From Eledone cirrhosa (lineage: Eukaryota), in the NCBI GenBank assembly GCA_964016885.1, contig OZ024743.1, positions 179,180,001 to 179,244,000 on the forward strand: DNA of 64,000 nucleotides. Reading direction: 5' to 3'. Positions 4,287 through 64,000 of the stretch are shown here, piece by piece. Both the position numbers and the translations under genes were made by a program. The notes under the pieces were generated by a model that saw only the letters and a program-made list of their open reading frames with translations, made no database searches and was not told where the DNA came from. The number at the start of each line of letters is the position of its first letter. The first letter of the stretch is position 1.

Positions 4287-4353
<67 letters not shown>

Positions 4354-4517
4354 ATATGTTGAAAAGGTAACACACCAGAGAGAGATATACAGTGCGCTAT
4401 CAAGAAAACAGGGAAAAACCACCAGTGTATGGAATCTATAACCTATGAAAGCAGACTATAGACACGATAATTAAAAATATAAATTAAAGCGTAAATAAAT
4501 ACCTCTATAACTATATA

Positions 4518-4611
4518 ACACACGTACAAATCCAAAGATACTAATCCAAAGATATGTTTCACCAGTAATTTGTTGAAAGAAATGGGTTAGCCCCGGTTCA
4601 TCAGCGTGTGT
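4518..4611 (-). ncRNA. Type I hammerhead ribozyme, copy 1
   Basis: Minus strand reads acacacg-CTGATGA-accgg...ctggt-GAAA-catatc...gatttg-TA-cgtgtgt: 7-bp stem I, GUA triplet. Confidence 0.85.
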
Positions 4612-5072
4612 AAGGCTATACATTTCAGACAACACTAAGAGAATTTTAAAAGTGACTGTCCAGCTACACGTGGGCGAGAGAAGTCACAGCGTGTTTAAGG
4701 GCAGTGAACCAGTGGCCTCTGAGGGACGAACTGCTAGAAAAGGCAGCCCAAAGCCACTCAGAGAAGTGTGCTCAACCAAACAGAGATAGGAAAGACTGTT
4801 ATTAGGAGCGAAATATCACGATAAATTAACGGAGGCATAGGCCCTCGCTATTCCCTGTAAATAATGTGCTCAAAGGGGAAGAAATCCTGAGCTCGTTAAA
4901 ATACAATATGTTGAAAAGGTAACACACCAGAGAGAGATATACAGTGCGCTATCAATAAAACAGGGAAAAAAACCACCAGTGTATGGAATCTATAACCTAT
5001 GAAAGGCAGACTATAGACACGATAATTAAAAATATAAATTAAAGCGTAAATAAATACCTCTATAACTATATA

Positions 5073-5166
5073 ACACACGTACAAATCCAAAGATACTAAT
5101 CCAAAGATATGTTTCACCAGTAATTTGTTGAAAGAAATGGGTTAGCCTCGGTTCATCAGCGTGTGT
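5073..5166 (-). ncRNA. Type I hammerhead ribozyme, copy 2
   Basis: Same motif as 4518-4611 at +555. Confidence 0.85.
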
Positions 5167-5170
5167 AAGG

Positions 5171-5210
<40 letters not shown>

Positions 5211-5216
<6 letters not shown>

Positions 5217-5735
5217 GGAATAGAAGAAACGAAATTTCTTTTCTCACTCTTAGTGCGGCAGTTACTTAAATGTAAGTATGTATGTATACGTACATACATA
5301 TATGTATACAGACGTACAGTAGTATGTATATATATACATACATGCACACATATATGCAGGTATCAGTTTACCGACCATTTATTATAATGCTCGGTTTGTC
5401 TGTAAACAAACAAACAGCCCGAATTATGCCGTACAGTGTTTAGGCAACCACGTCACCTTTTTGTTCAACACTGACACAGGAACGATGTACTAGTTTCAAG
5501 CTTATTAGCTATCGTCAGCATCGTATACCTTCCTGTCAGATGGTTGAACGTCTGAAAGTGTATACTTTCCGTATGCATATTAACGGCTGAGCAGCCTAAT
5601 TTGCATATCGAGTGAGTTTAGTCGGACGGGCCCACCGAAAACGATAAATGGAATAGAAGAAACGAAATTTCATTTCTCACTCTTAGTACCGCACTTACTT
5701 AAATGTAAGTATGTATGTATGTATGTATGTATACA
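5211..5735 (-). mobile_element. Retrozyme-like element: 433-bp unit plus partial tandem repeat, one HHR
   Basis: ataaatggaatagaagaaacgaaatttc...cttaaatgtaagtatgtatgtat occurs at 5211 and 5644. A second dispersed copy lies in the opposite orientation at 53996-54395. Confidence 0.8.
5482..5524 (-). ncRNA. Minimal type I hammerhead ribozyme
   Basis: Minus strand reads acgatg-CTGACGA-tagct aata agctt-GAAA-ctag-TA-catcgt. All core nucleotides are canonical. Confidence 0.9.
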
Positions 5736-5744
5736 TATATATCT

Positions 5745-5908
5745 ATGAAAAGATTCAGCACCCCGACGGCTGAGCTTCCGTCGTTTCGAAACGGCCGGAG
5801 CTCAGCCGTCGGGGTCCTGAATCTTTTCATATTACCCCCCTTACTACCCCAAGTATCGAGTATTATGGTACGTTATGGTCCACCCGGTATCTTACCACAC
5901 CCTCTTTG
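5745..5908 (+). mobile_element. Fold-back HHR-tail element, GAGCTC family (diverged copy)
   Basis: Palindrome 5745-5830 centred on tttcgaaa, then the family tail attaccc..actaccc.aagtat.gagta..tggt.cgttatggtccac. Confidence 0.75.
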
Positions 5909-7383: not shown

Positions 7384-7625
7384 ATTAGAAAATAGAATAG
7401 CTTTCACCGTATTTTTTGACTAAATAAATTTTAGTCTGATAATGGGGTTTAGAACCCTCAGTTAAAGATGTATTACTGTAATGGTAGCACAGTGGTCTGG
7501 ATAACCAAAGATGTGGGTTCGACTCCCATGTACGTCAATACTCATCTTTTTCCATTTAACTGAGGGTTCTAAACCCTATTATCAGACTAAAATTTATTTA
7601 GTCAAAAATACAGTGAAAGCTATTC

Positions 7626-9477: not shown

Positions 9478-9534
9478 CAGCAGCCACATTGTCACCACTA
9501 ACAACTATCAACTAACCAACAATTTGGACAACAG

Positions 9535-11295
9535 CACCTCGACATAATAACAACAACAGTAACAACAACAACACCTAGATATAACAACAACAACAGTAAC
9601 AACAACAACACCTAGATATAACAACAACAACAGTAACACCAACAACACCTAGATATAACAACAACAACAGTAACAACAACACCTAGATATAACAACAACA
9701 ACAGTAACAACAACAACACCTAGATATAACAACAACAACAGTAACACCAACAACACCTAGATATAACAACAACAGTAACAACAACACCTAGATATAACAA
9801 CAACAACAGTAACAACAACAACACTGAGATATAACAATAACAACAGTGACAACAACAACACCTAGATATAACAACAACAACAGTGACAACAACAGCACTG
9901 AGATATAACAATAACAACAGTGACAACAACAACACCTTGATATAACAACAACAACAGTAACACCAAGATATAACAATAACAACAGTAACAACAACAGCAC
10001 CTAGATATAACAATAACAACAGTAACACCAACAACACCTTGATATAACAACAACAACAGTAACACCAACAACACTGAGATATAACAACAACAACAGTAAC
10101 AACAACACCTAGATATAACAACAACAACAGTAACAACAACAACACTGAGATATAACAATAACAACAGTGACAACAACAACACCTAGATATAACAATAACA
10201 ACAGTAACACCAACAACACCTTGATATAACAACAACAACAGTAACACCAACAACACCTAGATATAACAATAACAACAGTAACACCAACAACACCTAGATA
10301 TAACAACAACAACAGCAACAACAGCACCTAGATATAACAACAACAACAGTAACACCAACAACACCTAGATATAACAACAACAACAGTAACACCAACAGCA
10401 CCTAGATATAACAACAACAACAGTAACACCAACAACACCTAGATATAACAACAACAACAGCAACAACAGCACCTAGATATAACAACAACAACAGTAACAC
10501 CAACAACACCTAGATATAACAACAACAACAGTAACAACAGCACCTAGATATAACAACAACAACAGTAACAACAGCACCTAGATATAACAACAACAACAGC
10601 AACAACAGCACCTAGATATAACAACAACAACAGTAACACCAACAACACCTAGATATAACAACAACAACAGTAATAACAACACCTAGATATAACAACAACA
10701 ACAGTGACACCAACAACACCTAGATATAACAACAACAACAGTAACAACAACACCTAGATATAACAACAACAACAGTGACAACAATAACACCTAGATATAA
10801 CAACAACAACAGTAACACCAACAGCACCTAGATATAACAACAACAACAGTAACACCAACAGCACCTAGATATAACAACAACAACAGTAACAACAACACCT
10901 AGATATAACAACAACAACAGTGACAACAATAACACCTAGATATAACAACAACAACAGTGACAACAACAACACCTAGATATAACAACAACAACAGTGACAA
11001 TAACAGCACTTTGATATAACAATAACAACAGTAACAACAACAACACCTAGATATAACAACAACAACAGTAACACCAACAATACCTAGATATAACAACAAC
11101 AACAGCAACAACAGCACCTAGATATAACAACAACAACAGTAACACCAACAGCACCTAGATATAACAACAACAACAGTGACAACAACAACACCTAGATATA
11201 ACAACAACAACAGTGACAACAACAACACCTAGATATAACAACAACAACAGTGACAACAAAAGCACCTTGATATAACAATAACAACAGTAACAAAA
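9535..11295. repeat. Minisatellite, 34/37-bp unit (cacctagatataacaacaacaacagtaacaacaa[caa])
   Basis: cctag recurs at 9574, 9611, 9648, 9682 and onward. The unit length is not a multiple of 3. Confidence 0.95.
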
Positions 11296-21057: not shown

Positions 21058-21213
21058 CGAAGGTGTGTTAAGGGACCATAACGCACCAGAGTACTCAATA
21101 CTTAGAGTAGTAGAGTGGGTAATAGCAAAATGTTTAACCCCGGCGACAGAACTCAGTCCAGAAATAGCCGTCGAAACGGCTTGAGCTCTGCCGTCGGGGT
21201 TAAACATTTTCCC
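21056..21213 (-). mobile_element. Fold-back HHR-tail element, GAGCTC family
   Basis: Tail on the minus strand plus an inverted arm containing GAAA-cggcttgagctctgccg-TC-ggggt, inside (TA)n. Confidence 0.8.
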
Positions 21214-21295
<82 letters not shown>

Positions 21296-29620: not shown

Positions 29621-30016
<396 letters not shown>

Positions 30017-33081: not shown

Positions 33082-33270
33082 AAAATGTTTAACCTCGACA
33101 GCAGAGCTCAAGCGGTTTCGGCAGGTATTTCAGAAATAGCCGTCGAAACGGCTTGAGCTCTTCTGCCGTCGAGGTTAAACATTTTCCTATTACTCACTCT
33201 ACTACCCTAAGTATTGAGTATTCTGGTGCGTTATGGTCCATCTGGTTCTTTACCACATCTCCTTTATTGT
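33078..33270 (+). mobile_element. Fold-back HHR-tail element, GAGCTC family
   Basis: Palindrome centred at about 33131 plus tail. Confidence 0.8.
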
Positions 33271-36179: not shown

Positions 36180-36518
<339 letters not shown>

Positions 36519-37972: not shown

Positions 37973-38925
<953 letters not shown>

Positions 38926-53995: not shown

Positions 53996-53999
<4 letters not shown>

Positions 54000-54395
54000 A
54001 ATTAGGCTGCTCAGCCGTTAATATGCATAAAGAAAGTATATACTTTCAAACGTTCAGTCATCTGACAGGAAGGTATACGATGCTGACGATAGCTAATAAG
54101 CTTGAAACTAGTTCATCGTTCCTTTGTCAGTGTTGAAGAAAATGGCAACGATGGTTGCCGAACACTGTACGGCTTATTTCGAGCTGTTTGTCTGCAAAAA
54201 AACCGAACATTATAATAAATGTTCGGTAAACCCATACGTACATATATATATATATATATATATGTGCATGTATGTATATATATACATACTACTGTACGTC
54301 TGTATACATATATGTATGTACGTATACATACTGATTTTTAAGTATCAGCCGTACTAAGAGTGAGAAATTTCATTTCATTTCATTCTTTTCCATTT
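53996..54395 (+). mobile_element. Second copy of the 433-bp retrozyme-like family
   Basis: Reverse complement of about 5213-5605; (TA)n on both sides. Confidence 0.85.
54077..54119 (+). ncRNA. Minimal type I hammerhead (GUU triplet)
   Basis: acgatg-CTGACGA-tagctaataagctt-GAAA-ctag-TT-catcgt. Confidence 0.85.
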
Positions 54396-54720: not shown

Positions 54721-54843
<123 letters not shown>

Positions 54844-55203
54844 CGTATATGTATACAGACGTACAGTAGTATGTATATATATACATACATGCACACATAT
54901 ATATATATGTACGTATGGGTAATTCTCTGTGCTGTAAGGGATGGGGTTAACATTTTTATGACTTGAGCACTTGTTTCAGTGTATGTGTTTATGTGTAATA
55001 TGTATCTACTAGAATATGTGCGCAAATGTGAGCTAGCCCGTCTGTGTGTGTGCGTGTGTGTGCGCCTGTGTGTGTGTGTGTGTCTGTGTGTGTATAGACA
55101 TACATACCTACGTACGTATTCCGTCACAGACGCAGACACACTTGCAATTAACGCACTCACAGATACATGCATAATAACACAAACACAATATACGCACACA
55201 CAC

Positions 55204-56439: not shown

Positions 56440-59400
56440 GTGGCGGTAGTGTTGTTAGTGGTGGTGTTAATGGTGTGGTAGTATTGTTGGGGCTGTTAGT
56501 AATGATGTTGTTACTAATGATGGTGGTGGTAGTGGTGGTGCTGGTACTGGTAGTAGTATTTGTGGTGGTGGTAGTGGTGGTGGTAGTGGTGATGGTAGTA
56601 GTATTAGTTGTGGTGGTGGTAGTAATGTTGGTGGTAGTGGTGATGGTAGTAGTATTTGAGGTGGTGGTGGTAGTAATGTTGGTGGTAGTGGTGATGGTAG
56701 TAGTATTTGTGGTGGTGGTGGTGTTAGTAATGTTGGTGGTAGTGGTGATGGTAGTGGTATTAGTGGTGGTTGTGGTAGTAATGTCGGTGGTAGTGGTGAT
56801 GGTAGTAGTATTAGTTGTGGTGGTGGTAGTAATGTTGGTGGTAGTGGTGATGGTAGTAGTATTTGAGGTGGTGGTGGTAGTAATGTAGCTCGTAGTGGTG
56901 ATGGTAGTAGTATTAGTGGTGGTGGTGGTACTAATGTTGGTGGTAGTGGTGATGGTAGTGGTATTTGTGGTGGTGGTGGTGGTAGTGATGTTGGTTGTAG
57001 TGGTGATGATAGTAGTATTCGTGGTGGTGGTGGTGGTAGTAATGTTCGTGGTAGTGGTGATGGTAGTAGTATTAGTGGTGGTGGTGGTAGTAATGTTGGT
57101 TGTAGTGGTGATGGTAGTAGTATTTGTGGTGGTGTTGGTGGTAGTAATGTTGGTGGTAGTGGTGATGGTAGTAGTGTTTGTGGTGGTGGAGGTAGTAATC
57201 TTGGTGGTAGTGGTGATGGTAGTAGTATTTGTGGTGGTGCTGGTAGTAATGTCGGTGGTAGTGGTGATGGTAGTAGTATTTGTGGTGGTGCTGGTAGTAA
57301 TGTCGGTGGTAGTGGTGATGGTAGTAGTATTAGTGGTGGTGTTGGTGGTAGTAATGTTGGTGGTAGTGGTGATGGTAGTAGTATTTGTGGTGGTGGTGGT
57401 GGTAATGTTGGTTGTAGTGGTGATGGTAGTAGTATTTGTCGTGGTGGTGGTAGTGGTGATAGTAGTAGTATTTGTGGTGGTGGTGGTAGTAATGTTGGTG
57501 GTAGTGGTGATGATAGTAGTATTAGTGGTGGTGGTGGTAGTAATGTTGGTGGTAGTGGTGATGGTAGTGGCATTAGTGCTGGTGGTGGTAGCAATGTTGG
57601 TGGTAGTGGTGATGGTAGTGGCATTAGTGCTGGTGGTGGTAGTAATGTTGGTGGTAGTGGTGACGGTAGTAGTATTAGTGCTGGTGGTGGTAGTAATGTT
57701 GGTGGTAGTGGTGATGGTAGTAGTATTAGTGGTGGTGGTGGTAGTAATGTTGGTGGTAGTGGTGATGGTAGTAGTATTTGTGGTGGTGGTGGTAGTAATC
57801 TTGGTGGTAGTGGTGATGGTAGTAGTATTTGTGGTGGTGGTGGTAGTAATCTTGGTGGTAGTGGTGATGGTAGTGGTATTTGTGGTGGTGGTGGTAGTAA
57901 TGTAGGTGGTAGTGGTGATGGTAGTAGTATTAGTGGTTGTGGTGGTAGCAATGTTACTGGTAGTGGTGATGGTAGTAGTATTTGTGGTGGTGGTGGTAGT
58001 AATGTTCGTGGTAGTGGTGATCGTAGTAGTATTTGTGGTGGTGGTGGTAGTAATGTTGGTGGTAGTGGTGATCGTAGTAGTATTTGTGGTGGAGGTGGTG
58101 GTAGTAATGTTCGTGGTAGTGGTGATGGTAGTAGTATTTGTGGTGGTGGTGGTAGTAATGTTTGGTGGTAATGGTGATGGTAGTAGTATTTGTGGTGGTG
58201 GTTGTAGTAATGTTGGTGGTAATGGTGATGGTAGTAGTATTAGTGGTGGTGGTGGTAATAATGTTGGTGGTAGTGGTGATGGTAGTAGTATTTGTGGTGG
58301 GGGTGGTAGTAATGTTTGGTGGAAGTGGTGATGGTAGTAGTATTAGTGGTGGTGTTGGTAGCAATGTTGGTGGTAGTGGTGATGGTAGTAGTATTGGTGG
58401 TGGTGGTGGTAAAAATGTTGGTGGGAGTGGTGATGGTAGTAGTATATGTTGTGGTGGTGGTGGTGGTGGTAGTAATGTTGTTGGTAGTGGTGATGGTAGC
58501 GGTATGTGTGGTGGTGGTGGTGGTGGTGGTAGTAATGTTGGTGGTAGTAATGTTGGTGGTAGTGGTGATGGTAGTAGCATTTGTGGTGGTGGTGGTAGTA
58601 ATGTTTGGTGGTAGTGGTAATGGTAGTAGTATTTGTGGTGGTGGTATTAATGTTGGTGGTAGTGGGATGGTAGTGGTATTTGTGGTGGTGTTGGTGGTAG
58701 TAATGTTGGTGGTAATGGTGATGGTAGTAGTATTTGTGGTGGTGGTGGTAGTAATGTTGGTAGTAGTGGTGATGGTAGTAGTATTTGTGGTGGTGGTGTT
58801 GGTGGTGGTAGCAATGTCGGTGGTAGTTGTGATGGTAGTAGTATTATTGGTGGTGGTGGTGTTAGTAATGTTGGTGGAAGTGGTGATGGTAGTAGTATTA
58901 GTGGTGGTGTTGGTAGCAATGTTGGTGGTAGTGGTGATGGTAGTAGTATTAGTGGTGGTGGTAGTAGTAATGTTGGTGGTAGTGGTGATGGTAGTAGTAT
59001 TAGTGGTGGTGGTGGTAGTAATGTTGGTGGTAGTGTTGATGGTAGTAGTATTAGTGGTGGTGGTGGTAGCAATGTTGGTGGTAGTGGTGATTGTAGTAGT
59101 ATTAGTGGTGGTGGTGGTAGTAATGTTGGTGGTAGTGGTAATGGTAATAGTATTTGTGGTGCTGGTGGTAGTAATGTTGGTGATAGTGGTGATGGTAGTA
59201 GTATTTGTGGTGGTGGTAGTGGTGATGGTAGTAGCATTTGTAGTGGTGGTGGTGGTAGTAATGTTGGTTGTAGTGGTGATGGTAGTAGTATGTGTGGTGG
59301 TGGAGGTAGTAATGTTGGTGGTAGTGGTAATAGTAGTAGTATTTGTGGTGGTGGTGGTGGTAATGTTGGTGGTAGTGGTGATGGTAGTAGTATTTGTGGT

Positions 59401-62400
59401 GGTGGTAGTGGTGATGGTAGTAGCATTTGTGGTGGTGGTGGTTGTAGTAATGTTGGTGGTAGTGCTGATGGTAGTAGTATTTGTGGTGTGGTGGTGGTAA
59501 TGTTGGTGGTAGTGGTGATGGTAGTAGTATTTGTGGTGGTGGTGGTGGTAATGTTGGTGGTAGTGGTGTTGGTAGTAGTATTTGTGGTGGTGTTGGTTGT
59601 AGTAATGTTGGTGGTAGTGGTGATGGTAGAAGTATTTGTGGTGTGGTGGTGGTAATGTTGGTGGTAGTAGTGATGTTATTAGTATCTGTGGTGGTGGTGG
59701 TTGTAGTAATGTTGATGGACGTCGTGATGGTAGTAGTATTTGTGGTGTGGTAGTGGTAGTAATGTTGGTAGTAGTATTAGTGGTGGTGGTGGTAACAATG
59801 TTGGTGGTAGTGGTGATGGTAGTAGTATTTGTGGTGGTGGTGTTGGTAGTAATGTTGGTAGTAGTGGTGATGATAGTAGTATTAGTGGTGGTGGTGGTAG
59901 TAATGTTGGTGGTAGTAATGTTGGTGGTAGTGGTGATGGTAGTAGTATTAGTGGTGGTGGTGGTAGTAATGTTGGTGTTAGTGGTGATGGTAGCAGTAAT
60001 TGTGGTGGTAGTGGTAGTAATGTTGGTAGTAGTGGTGATGATAGTAGTATTAGTGGTGGTGGTGGTAGTAATGTTGATGGTAGTGGTGATGGTAGTAGTA
60101 TTTGTGGTGGGGGTGGTAGTAATGTTTGGTGGAAGTGGTGATGGTAGTAGTATTAGTGGTGGTGTTGGTAGCAAGGTTGGTGGTAGTGGTGATGGTAGTA
60201 GTATTAGTGGTGGTGGTGGTAGAAATGTTGGTGGGAGTGGTGATGGTAGTAGTATATGTTGTGGTGGTGGTGGTGGTGGTAGTAATGTTGTTGGTAGTGG
60301 TGATGGTAGCGGTATGTGTGGTGGTGGTGGTGGTGGTGGTAGTAATGTTGGTGGTAGTAATGTTGGTGGTAGTGGTGATGGTAGTAGCATTTGTGGTGGT
60401 GGTGGTAGTAATGTTTGGTGGTAGTGGTAATGGTAGTAGTATTTGTGGTGGTGGTATTAATGTTGGTGGTAGTGGGATGGTAGTGGTATTTGTGGTGGTG
60501 TTGGTGGTAGTAATGTTGGAGGTAATGGTGATGGTAGTAGTATTTGTGGTGGTGGTGGTAGTAATGTTGGTAGTAGTGGTGATGGTAGTAGTATTTGTGG
60601 TGGTGGTGTTGGTGGTGGTAGCAATGTCGGTGGTAGTTGTGATGGTAGTAGTATTATTGGTGGTGGTGGTGTTAGTAATGTTGGTGGAAGTGGTGATGGT
60701 AGTAGTATTAGTGGTGGTGTTGGTAGCAATGTTGGTGGTAGTGGTGATGGTAGTAGTATTAGTGGTGGTGGTAGTAGTAATGTTGGTGGTAGTGGTGATG
60801 GTAGTAGTATTAGTGGTGGTGGTGGTTGTAATGTTGGTGGTAGTGTTGATGGTAGTAGTATTAGTGGTGGTGGTGGTAGCAATGTTGGTGGTAGTGGTGA
60901 TTGTAGTAGTATTAGTGGTGGTGGTGGTAGTAATGTTGGTGGTAGTGGTAATGGTAATAGTATTTGTGGTGCTGGTGGTAGTAATGTTGGTGATAGTGGT
61001 GATGGTAGTAGTATTTGTGGTGGTGGTAGTGGTGATGGTAGTAGCATTTGTAGGGGTGGTGGTAGTAATGTTGGTTGTAGTGGTGATGGTAGTAGTATGT
61101 GTGGTGGTGGAGGTAGTAATGTTGGTGGTAGTGGTAATAGTAGTAGTATTTGTGGTGTGGTGGTGGTAATGTTGGTGGTAGTGGTGATGTTATTAGTATC
61201 TGTGGTGGTGGTGGTTGTAGTAATGTTGATGGTAGTGGTGATGGTAGTAGTATTTGAGGTGTGGTAGTGGTAGTAATGTTGGTAGTAGTATTAGTGGTGG
61301 TGGTGGTAACAATGTTGGTGGTAGTGGTGATGGTAGTAGTATTTGTGGTGGTGGTGTTGGTGGTGGTAGTAATGTTGGTGGTAGTGGTGATGGTAGTAGT
61401 AGTTGTGGTGGTGGTGGTGGTAATGTTGGTGGTAGTGGTGATGGTAGTAGTATCTGTGGTGGTGGTGGTTGTAGTAATGTTGGTGGTAGTGGTGATGGTA
61501 GTAGTATTAGTGGTGGTGGTGGTAGTAATGTTGGTGGTAGTGGTGATGCTAGTCGTATTTGTGGTGGTGGTGGTAGTGGTGATGGTAGTAGTATTAGTGC
61601 TGGTGGTGGTAGTGGTGTTGTAGTAGTATTTGTGGTGGTGGTGGTAGTAATGTTGGTGCTAGTGGTGATGGTAGTAGTATTTGTGGTGGTGGTGGTTGTA
61701 ATGTTGGTGGTAGTGGTGATGGTAGTAGTATTTGTGGTGGTGGTGGTTGTAATGTTGGTGGTAGTGGTGATGGTAGTAGTATTTGTGGTGGTGGTGGTTG
61801 TAATGTTGTTGGTAGTGGTGATGGTAGTAGTTTTTGTGGTGGTGTTGGTAGTAATGTTGGTAGTAGTGGTGATGATAGTAGTATTAGTGTTGGTGGTGGT
61901 AGTAATGTTGGTGGTAGTGGTGATGGTAGTAGTATTAGTGGTGGTGGTGGTAGTAATATTGGTGGTAGTGGTGATGCTAGTCGTATTTGTGGTGGTGGTG
62001 GTGGTGGTAGTAATGTTGGTGCTAGTGGTGATGGTAGTAGCATTTGTGGTGGTCGTCGTAGTAATGTTGGTGGTAGTGGTGATGGTAGTAGTATTAGTGC
62101 TAGTGGTGGTAGCAATGTTGGTGGTAGTGGTGATGGTAGTGGTATTTGTGGTGGTGGTGGTAGCAATGTTGGTGGTAGTGGTGATGGTAGTAGTATTAGT
62201 GTTGGTGGTGGTAGTAATGTCGGTGATAGTGGTGATGGTAGTAGTATTTGTAGTGGTGGTGGTGGTAGTAATGTTGGTGGTAGTGGTGATGGTAGTAGTA
62301 TTTGTGGTGGTGGTGGTGGTAGTAATGTTGGTGGTAGTGGTGATGGTAGTAGTATTAGTGGTGGTGGTGGTAGTAATGTTGGTGGGAGTGGTGATGGTAA

Positions 62401-64000
62401 GAGTATTAGTGGTGGTGGTGGTAGTAATGTTGGTTGTAGTGGTGATGGTAGTAGTATTTGTGGTGGTGGTGGTAGTGGTGATAGTAGTAGTATTTGTGAT
62501 GGTGGTGGCAGTAATATTGGTGGTAGTGGTGATGATAGTAGTATTAGTGTTGGTGGTGGTAGTATTGTTGGTGTTAGTGGTGATGGTAGTGGTATTTGTG
62601 GTGGTGGTGGTAGTAATGTTGGTGGTAGTGGTGATGGTAGTAGTATTAGTGCTGGTGGTGGTAGCAATGTTGGTGGTAGTGGTGATGGTAGTGGTATTTG
62701 TGGTGGTGGTGGTAGTAATGTAAGTGGTAGTGGTGATGGTAGTAGTATTAGTGGTGGTGGTGGTAGTAATGTTGGTGGTAGTGGTGATGGTAGTAGTATT
62801 TGTGGTGGGGGTGGTAGTAATGTTTGTGGTAGTGGTGATGGTAGTAGTATTTGTGGTGGTGGTGGTAGTAATGTTGGTGGCAGTGGTGATGGTAGTAGTA
62901 TTAGTGGTGGTGGTGGTAGAAATGTTGGTGGCAGTGGTGATGGAAGCAGTATTTGTGCTGGTGGTGGTAGTAATGTTGGTGGTAGTGGTGATGGTAGTAG
63001 TATATGTTGTGGTGGTGGTGGTGGAGGTAGTAATGTTGGTGGTAGTGGTGATGGTAGCAGTAGATGTGGTGGTGGTGGTAGCCATGTCGGTGGGAGTGGT
63101 GATGGTAGTAGTATATGTTGTGGTGGTGTTGGTGGTGGTAGTAATGTTCGTGGTAGTGGTGATTGTAGTAGCATTTGTGGTGGTGGTGGAAGTAATGTTT
63201 GGTGCTAGTGGTGATGGTAGTAGTATATGTTGTGGTGGTGGTGGTGGTGGTAGTAATGTTCGTGGTAGTGGTGATTGTAGTAGCATTTGTGGTGGTGGTG
63301 GAAGTAATGTTTGGTGCTAGTGGTGATGGTAGTAGTATTTGTGGTGGTGGTATTAATGTTGGTGGTAGTGGGATGGTAGTGGTATTTGTGGTGGTGGTGT
63401 TGGTGGTGGTAGCAATGTCGGTGTTAGTTGTGATGGTAGTAGTATTACTGGTGGTGTTGGTGTTAGTAATGTTGGTGGAAGTGGTGATGGTAGTAGTATT
63501 AGTGGTGGTGGTGGTAGCAATGTTGGTGGTAGTGGTGATGGTAGTGGTATTTGTGGTGGTGGAGGTAGTAATGTTGGTGCTAGTGGTGATGGTAATAGTA
63601 TTTGTGGTGGTGGTGGTGGTAGTGGTGATGGTAGTAGTAGTAGTGGTTATGGTTGTGGTATTAATGTTGGTGGTAGTGGTAATGGTAGTAGTATTTGTGG
63701 TGGTGGTGCTAGTATTGTTGGTGGTAGTGGTGATGGTAGTAGTATTAGTGCTGATGGTTGTGGTAGTAATGTTGGTGGTAGTGGTATTAGCGGTGGTGGT
63801 GGTGGTAGTAATGTTGGTGGTAGTTGTCATGGTAGTGGTATTTGTGGTGGAGGTGGTTGTAATGTTGGTGGTAGTGGTGATGGCAGTAGTATTTGTGGTG
63901 GTGGTGGTAGTGGTGATGGTAGTAGTATTTGTGGTGGAGGTGGTGGTAGTAATGTTGGTAGTAGTGGTGATGATAGTAGTATTAGTGGTGGTGGTGGTAG
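56440..64000. repeat. GGT-rich minisatellite, ~51-bp unit (gtggtgatggtagtagtatttgtggtggtggtggtagtaatgttggtggta), running off the window end
   Basis: 17-residue periodicity in all translated frames; higher-order duplication with 1810-bp offset. Confidence 0.95.

Follow-up and report, generated by a model that had tools for sequence, protein, structure and literature searches.

Probable non-LTR retrozymes of Eledone cirrhosa: hammerhead-bearing repeats with the insertion anatomy of Penelope-like elements

The SM-alpha repeats of Schistosoma are tandem repeats that carry type I hammerhead ribozymes (HHRs) of the dimer type. Newt satellite 2, as summarised in PMC7229834, is likewise made of tandem repeats with dimer-type type I HHRs, and non-LTR retrozymes have been described from the metazoans coral, mussel and axolotl (Cervera and de la Pena 2020, PMC7229834). 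Axolotl retrozymes that have a one-pair helix III or a basal U.U in helix II were reported to cleave weakly alone and better as dimers (PMC7229834). Dependence of retrozymes on Penelope-like elements (PLEs) was proposed earlier, from co-occurrence and from homology to the PLE pseudo-LTR (pLTR) (PMC7229834; bioRxiv 10.64898/2026.07.22.740005). On this basis, and mainly for vertebrates, Li, Clavereau and Pollet (bioRxiv 10.64898/2026.07.22.740005) present retrozymes as non-autonomous PLE derivatives and propose local tandem amplification from the pLTR; one of the nine dimers tested in that study cleaved. The mobilising enzyme, and the circle as template, are open questions according to PMC7229834 and bioRxiv 2026.07.22.740005. 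The hallmarks of PLEs themselves are partial tandems, adjacent inverted copies, a bias towards microsatellites and (TA)n targeting (PMC8557442, Craig et al. 2021), and a purified PLE protein was found to start reverse transcription (RT) internally at two sites and to cut and extend both strands of its target (PMC11167929, Frangieh et al. 2024).

In a 64-kb stretch of the Eledone cirrhosa genome (hereafter the window), the sequence had been read as containing a 433-bp unit in a partial tandem of ~1.2 units, a second, oppositely oriented copy with its own HHR, and a small fragment at about 54839-54900. All three are real (Table 1). Followed from 5740 to 5211, the partial tandem consists of unit positions 341-433 and then a full unit, 1-433, with a variable, truncated 5′-end at 5740 and a fixed 3′-end at 5211; the repeated 93-97 bp, at an offset of 433 (5211-5303 and 5644-5740), are 89.7% identical. 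The second copy, on the plus strand, is 84-86% identical to the first and is flanked on both sides by TA-rich sequence, against which it has its 3′-end, at the same unit terminus as the first copy. Its HHR core begins at 54083 and has the same 30-nt core as the first copy, with GUU as the triplet. The fragment is a separate copy that ends at the second of the two fixed 3′ sites described below. A unit of 433 bp is correct for the window copy, which has a rare 1-nt deletion; for the family as a whole the unit is ~434 nt.

Table 1. Positions in the window of the retrozyme copies and of their ends, target and ribozyme elements.
Feature	Position	Strand	Remarks
Retrozyme insertion	5211..5740	minus	1.2 units; 526 nt in unit coordinates
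Full 433-nt unit	5211..5643	minus	GC 0.386, no ORF
Partial second turn, unit 341-433	5644..5740	minus	rare 1-nt deletion common to terminal repeat
(TA)n target microsatellite	5172..5213	.	adjoins fixed 3′ site 1 (unit 433)
Fixed 3′ site 2, unit ~372-377	5267..5272	minus	internal in the 5211-5740 copy
Long TA-rich hairpin	5272..5358	minus	immediately upstream of site 2
Extended helix I	5473..5537	minus	conserved GGUA-containing internal loop; RNA folds
Type I hammerhead motif	5482..5524	minus	runs 5524 to 5482; sequence, pattern, fold, covariation
Helix I	5524-5519 with 5487-5482	minus	6 pairs plus distal extension
HHR core CUGACGA	5518-5512	minus	
Helix II	5511-5498	minus	4 positions, U.U at base, loop UAAUAA
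GAAA	5497-5494	minus	then palindromic CUAG loop, GUA
Independent 5′-truncated copy, unit 42-431	53999..54395	plus	diverged subfamily
Short independent copy, unit 289-367, 79 nt	54826..54902	minus	ends at site 2, (TA)n

In every feature that can be tested in sequence, the 433-nt family agrees with the non-LTR retrozymes. Each unit has one canonical type I HHR; there is no coding capacity, the longest stop-free frame being 78 codons; the GC content is below 50%; and the RNA is predicted to be self-paired, with a fold of -129 kcal/mol (z = -4.93) that beats all 100 shuffles. At 433/434 nt in tandem the unit lies within the 150-450 bp range of the class, which is exceeded by some of the 422-502-bp relatives described below. 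The retrozymes of PMC7229834 are similar: their non-coding units are short, stand in tandem, each contain one canonical type I HHR, are poor in GC and pair strongly with themselves, and they occur in very high copy number alongside co-existing PLEs. For those elements cleavage and circles were shown and the enzyme was only proposed. What the insertions of the Eledone family add to that account is a pair of fixed sites at which RT probably starts, targeting of (TA)n, inverted arms joined head-to-head and chimeras with specific PLE families. Features of autonomous PLEs are also present, namely partial tandems, an inverted 5′-truncated copy and two alternative 3′-ends at AT-rich targets, with an RT/GIY-YIG ORF and a minimal HHR variant in a pLTR being absent from the unit.

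The original prediction described the ribozyme at 5482-5524 as a fully canonical minimal HHR. An HHR is present at this position, but it is neither minimal nor fully canonical. Under the definitions that separate 'minimal' from 'canonical' metazoan type I HHRs (Cervera and de la Pena 2014, PMC4209133), a helix I of 6 bp, a helix II of four positions and a palindromic loop 3 class it as canonical metazoan type I rather than as the min-HHR of PLEs, but the base of helix II is U.U instead of G-C. Within the window, a strict HHR pattern matches only in the 5211-5740 and 53999-54395 copies. At its gathering threshold Rfam reported no HHR in the window, and the motif was therefore established by pattern and covariation instead. 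Cleavage is predicted, from the sequence, to occur after GUA, between 5488 and 5487. Helix III consists of a single pair capped by the palindromic CUAG and, for this reason, the HHR likely acts as a dimer. A one-pair helix III with a palindromic tetraloop is also present in axolotl HHR_Amex1, and a basal U.U in helix II of axolotl HHR_Amex2 (PMC7229834). The helix II base is U.U or C.A in the 433-nt family and is unpaired in seven of ten aligned rows, so that ribozyme activity may be low. The GGUA in the internal loop of the extended helix I is invariant in all ten aligned family representatives, and this part of the fold is likely a tertiary partner of loop 2.

A chance origin of the motif is excluded by the 10,575 exact matches to the 30-nt HHR core genome-wide, as compared with none in a reversed control. 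A looser HHR motif, with 40,520 matches genome-wide and 6 in the control, delimits a clan of homologous families with units of 422-502 bp. One of these, a sister family with a 465-bp unit that was first met beside a PLE, is collinear with the 433-nt family over the whole unit at ~62% identity, keeps both homologous 3′-ends and has a helix II closed by G-C; its copies are 99-100% identical. At one locus (L149, from position 1799 onward), a sister-family arm passes straight into sequence of the HHR region of the 433-nt family in the same orientation, possibly as the result of a template switch between two retrozyme RNAs. Contigs of two other organisms contain related sequence.

The HHR appears to be under selection. 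Between families that are only ~62% alike, its core is unchanged and its helices differ by compensatory changes. In an alignment of ten hand-chosen family representatives, whose rows are related and so hold few independent events, 6 of 11 pairs have changed on both sides between families, the covariation score is reached by none of 500 shuffles, and the core is invariant except at N7 and H17. When the HHR was compared with its flanks, as had been suggested with the original prediction, it proved the more conserved, with a core deviation of 0.029 versus 0.059 elsewhere in the unit among 29 copies that had been selected by sequence lying outside the HHR. An earlier figure, 0.008 in the core versus 0.036, was set aside as the copies had been picked partly on the HHR itself.

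The number of HHRs per locus in the 433-nt family is one in each of the two window copies, two in L206 and three in L205, and much longer arrays exist. Sister-family arrays of 10.5 and 31 units are each closed by a short inverted arm; in the latter (L202 and L203, G000:C1:5738327-5752443), six recurrent within-array variants cluster in the 60 nt directly downstream of the cleavage site. The 433-nt unit forms a satellite-like array of >20 kb (L283, G000:C1:70055800-70075700) with 3- and 6-unit higher-order spacing, in which none of the 19 listed HHRs is intact, 18 having C3 changed to A. Arrays can therefore grow without ribozyme activity. Unlike satellite 2 and SM-alpha, however, most of the sampled copies are dispersed, short and PLE-shaped, and long arrays are a minority.

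Insertion anatomy was determined in a position-ordered sample. A 30-mer downstream of the cleavage site has 3,016 matches, and 70 loci were chosen among the first 100 of these; removal of 4 duplicates and one long array left 65 insertions with 74 arms carrying the 30-mer. The 3′-ends of 67 of the 74 arms are fixed at two sites spaced by ~60 nt, 31 at site 1 (unit 414-433) and 36 at site 2 (unit 350-380), and 61 of these 67 end against TA (28 of 31 at site 1, 33 of 36 at site 2); the other seven arms end elsewhere. Site 2 is likely a second RT start site. The 5′-ends are variable, and 27 of the 74 arms are longer than one unit. The cleavage site is crossed by 51 arms and only 2 of the 74 stop within 10 nt of it, which argues against cleaved linear monomers as the main template and agrees with the earlier proposal of a non-LTR retrozyme copied from a circular or tandem template. 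Arms are inverted head-to-head in 38 of the 65 insertions, and tail-to-tail in one. Among 17 inverted junctions of the sister family, the arms overlap by 1-42 nt at 11, meet flush at 2 and are separated at the other 4 by inserts of 9-17 nt, three of which match the unit over 13-16 nt. Target-site duplications longer than 4 bp, which the class has when duplications are present, would be masked, as the insertion ends lie in (TA)n, and a poly(A) tail was absent from the junctions read. The BLAST query was the majority unit, projected on the window copy and one base short, and placement was imprecise for 5′-ends within the TA-rich hairpin; a cluster at 235-240 among the 5′-ends of the sister family was taken to reflect bias from the query and disregarded.

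As read from these junctions, the anatomy is that of PLEs and is common to the Neptune-type PLEs of the Eledone cirrhosa genome. Partial tandems, an inverted 5′-truncated neighbour and a microsatellite bias are shared with Neptune-type PLEs in general (PMC8557442, PMC11167929). Two internal RT start sites are likewise known from PLEs, with an optional 'tail' between them, and such internal starts, together with cutting of both strands (PMC11167929), would account for the two fixed ends and the inverted arms of the retrozymes. The two ends are ~60 nt apart in the retrozyme and 30-40 nt apart in PLE tails. The PLE HHR is near the 3′-end (PMC8557442, PMC11167929), whereas that of the retrozyme is ~280 nt from it and is of the canonical type; unlike a PLE, the retrozyme has no RT or endonuclease ORF, and the whole element is ~434 nt.

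Long arrays with mosaic variants and dead HHRs would also be expected of a satellite or SINE-like repeat, with a relict HHR, that is spread by DNA-level processes, whether unequal crossing over or extrachromosomal circles, or by the enzyme of a LINE, and the sister-family array in L168 does show signs of local duplication after insertion. We regard this origin as very unlikely. The dispersed copies have fixed 3′-ends on (TA)n, variable 5′-ends and a ratio of head-to-head to tail-to-tail arms of 38 to 1, with no tRNA head detected by Rfam and no poly(A) tail at the junctions read; the chimeras described below, found by comparison with PLE references, are with PLEs. A tRNA-derived SINE was rejected separately, as Rfam finds no tRNA in the unit and the ends of the copies are internal sites of a closed unit.

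The Eledone cirrhosa genome has 10,596 GIY-YIG candidates. From 50 GIY-YIG loci seven PLE families were obtained, six with an RT, a CX4CXXC linker and, at the C-terminus, a GIY-YIG domain, and one that is more distant, with open frames of up to 1,096 codons, stop to stop; the designation Neptune-type is based on the domain order and the cysteine linker. Young Neptune-type families have long open frames and copies that are 96-97% identical in protein. These PLEs end on (TA)n, several of them at alternative sites, carry HHR variants and occur as head-to-head pairs (L105). In the PLE 3′-regions of L091, L107, L108 and L110, the HHR variants have C3-G8 replaced by U3-A8, and their loop 3 is the palindrome CCGG. 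Helix II of the L107 family begins with a basal U.U, as in the 433-nt retrozyme, and the L108 family has GCAA where GAAA is expected. Among the matches listed for the 50 GIY-YIG loci and seven families, no convincing homology of the unit to a pLTR or PLE was found; the retrozyme 3′-terminus matches the L108 family at 13 of 14 nt (p = 0.008) in one of 36 tests, which is not significant after 36. The Eledone elements belong to the same class, and have the same proposed partner, as those of Li et al. (bioRxiv 10.64898/2026.07.22.740005), but no pLTR homology was found for them among the seven sampled families, and their multi-unit arrays appear to have been inserted ready-made with PLE-type ends. 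In the main text of Li et al., each of the words 'inverted' and 'chimeric' has a single occurrence, which is in the reference list.

Across 351 loci, which overlap in part, there were 487 distinct retrozyme 5′-ends; a retrozyme partner arm accompanies 315 of them and 172 are free. Three of the free ends, in L226, L161 and L321, are joined head-to-head, within 4 nt, to a 5′-truncated PLE fragment. The chance expectation for such junctions is ~0.1 (P ~2e-4), a crude, post hoc estimate based on 85 PLE fragments in ~0.67 Mb of unique sequence. In L226 the 3′-end of an L108-family PLE is joined to a retrozyme arm of 1.1 units, and on each side the outer end is a natural terminus that lies on (TA)n. 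In L161 a pLTR piece of the L091 family and an arm of the 433-nt family are joined through a 5-nt overlap that lies in helix II of both ribozymes, with both outer ends again natural termini, here on TA-rich sequence. The third junction connects a sister-family arm to an L093-like ORF end, the 3′-terminus of which was not traced. No remainder of the PLE was found beyond the retrozyme 3′-end in L226, L161 or L321. A contig search at the L226 junction, which skipped the repeat-rich side, revealed no bridging piece and neither supports nor contradicts this structure, and 80 additional loci that were fetched contained no further chimeras. Only one of the 172 free 5′-ends, in L056, abuts a known PLE, a 3′-region, in the same orientation, and it is ambiguous. 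In combination with the insertion anatomy, we consider the chimeras to be genomic evidence of unusual directness that PLEs act in trans to mobilise the retrozyme.

The same anatomy could have another source if the unit were a pseudo-LTR or tail-end fragment of an unsampled coding PLE and its copies ordinary truncated insertions. Tandem-plus-inverted structure and (TA)n targeting are PLE features (PMC8557442), the copy in L056 lies behind a PLE 3′-region and is oriented like it, and the PLE references were seven families out of the 10,596 GIY-YIG candidates. Extension of the copies into a longer coding element was looked for and not found. In tandem copies position 433 is followed by position 1, giving a closed repeat with no ORF, and this repeat forms arrays, which in the sister family have 10 to 31 units and in the 433-nt family exceed 20 kb. 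The 169 free 5′ flanks have neither a common upstream extension nor a PLE ORF on the same strand, and the HHR is canonical, in contrast to the min-HHR or U3-A8 variants in the PLEs of this genome. A fragment of a coding PLE is, therefore, very unlikely.

That the 433-nt family is a non-autonomous element mobilised by PLEs is stated here with considerable confidence whichever RNA is copied, and the best explanation is that of a non-LTR retrozyme copied into (TA)n by Neptune-type PLEs, probably from a small RNA circle. In the alternative, the same PLE parasite is copied from a linear transcript that reads through tandem loci and is left uncleaved, with the HHR kept for some other step or for transcript trimming and with circles playing no part. 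Such transcripts would have plentiful tandem donors. In vitro, PLE insertion is independent of HHR cleavage, HHR mutants being inserted normally, and the PLE enzyme, which starts RT internally, prefers and mainly uses unprocessed RNA (PMC11167929). The weak base of helix II is also in keeping with a linear template, as are the higher-order periodicities in the arrays, where 5-unit and 2-unit periods with mosaic variants point to multimeric templates or to local duplication. The compensatory changes that keep the HHR across families speak against it.

Shared rare variants also bear on the template. The 1-nt deletion that is common to both repeats of the 5211-5740 copy has 4 occurrences genome-wide, versus 2,812 of the common allele. 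The only two other carriers hold one each. One of them, a short copy (L317), has a second variant in common with the window copy as well, and the deletion is thereby assigned to a template lineage. The deletion fits one circle read 1.2 times, whereas a linear donor would need this rare allele in two successive repeats. The same two repeats differ by four substitutions within 58 nt, one of which is a common polymorphism. In the sister family, a haplotype present in both arms of the L168 insertion has 3 occurrences genome-wide, all inside L168, so that a linear template would have no donor elsewhere in the assembly, although such a donor could be lost or reside on the other haplotype. Rare variants are common to both arms in L151, L167, L168 and L170 of this family, but not in L161 or L162, and in the 31-unit array the same array-specific variants recur in every one of the 30 full units, as well as in as much of the short inverted arm as was read. 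An array variant in L162 taken to be private, one of two 'private' variants tested, proved common, with 256 matches.

Counted over whole samples, rare-allele sharing between turns of one arm is 66/292 against a background of 610/58,221 in a set picked by similarity, and 6/242 against 768/63,429, close to background, in a set ordered by position; the weakness of sharing in the position-ordered sample favours a linear template. In favour of a circle, inverted partners share rare alleles well above background in both sets, with 20/278 versus 610/58,221 in the similarity-picked one and 54/284 versus 768/63,429, from 5 loci, in the position-ordered one. On balance a circle is favoured over an uncleaved multimer, and the linear read-through transcript seems rather improbable.

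If a circle is the template, tandem loci would be transcribed, monomers would be released from the transcripts by the HHRs, likely acting in dimeric form, and a host ligase would close these monomers into circles. The RT-endonuclease of a PLE would then nick both strands of the (TA)n, and reverse transcription would begin at one or the other of the two internal sites, one for each cut end, the RT passing the ligation junction and continuing for 0.3 to many turns. Joining of the two cDNAs at their far ends by microhomology would complete the insertion, and occasional priming of the second end on the PLE's own RNA would give rise to the chimeras.

A more far-reaching version of this proposal, which we offer tentatively as plausible though somewhat short of probable, is that the clan of ~40,000 HHRs consists of circular ribozyme RNAs that parasitise several Neptune-type PLE families simultaneously and share no sequence with them. 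With the same reservation, a dimeric PLE enzyme might prime both ends of the (TA)n break and travel around the circle as many as tens of times, and might at times co-insert its own RNA as the other arm. Should this be so, the chimeras would document, in the genome, an animal retrozyme being mobilised in trans and would name the partner enzymes, and the haplotypes that have no genomic donor would leave room for variation at the RNA level. The class of element is already known, and the value of the Eledone families is in evidence on mechanism and in their scale. Searches of open-access full text gave no account of the 433-nt family or of retrozyme-PLE chimeras, and a prior description elsewhere is possible. 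With near-identical sister retrozymes, young Neptune-type PLEs, readable RT starts and chimeras, the Eledone cirrhosa genome is a ready test system, and one that bears on how PLEs produce tandem and inverted insertions.

Several other repeats lie near the retrozyme copies in the window. An unrelated partial tandem at 4347-5178 has ~1.5 units at an offset of ~555 bp, with 97% identity between the repeats, is flanked by (TA)n tracts and shares with the retrozyme the (TA)n at 5172-5213. Relatives of this repeat occur in L366, L178 (with an inverted arm), L134 and L065. A relaxed pattern search of the 4347-5178 repeat found no HHR, its longest stop-free frame is 81 codons, and it looks like another non-coding parasite of the PLE type, possibly one that is free of a ribozyme. 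The 5′-end of the retrozyme is abutted, at 5744-5900, by a further repeat, unlike the others and abundant, which has a long GC-rich hairpin and is often found beside (TA)n; it is also present at 21073-21238, 29776-29990, 33143-33257, 36246-36507 and 38067-38914. An isolated tRNA match at 7467-7537 (43.3 bits) is the sole Rfam finding in the window. There are, in addition, two minisatellites, one at 9528-11293 with 49 copies of a 37-bp ACA-rich unit and one at 56521-64000 with >140 copies of a 51-bp TGG-rich unit and an extreme strand skew.
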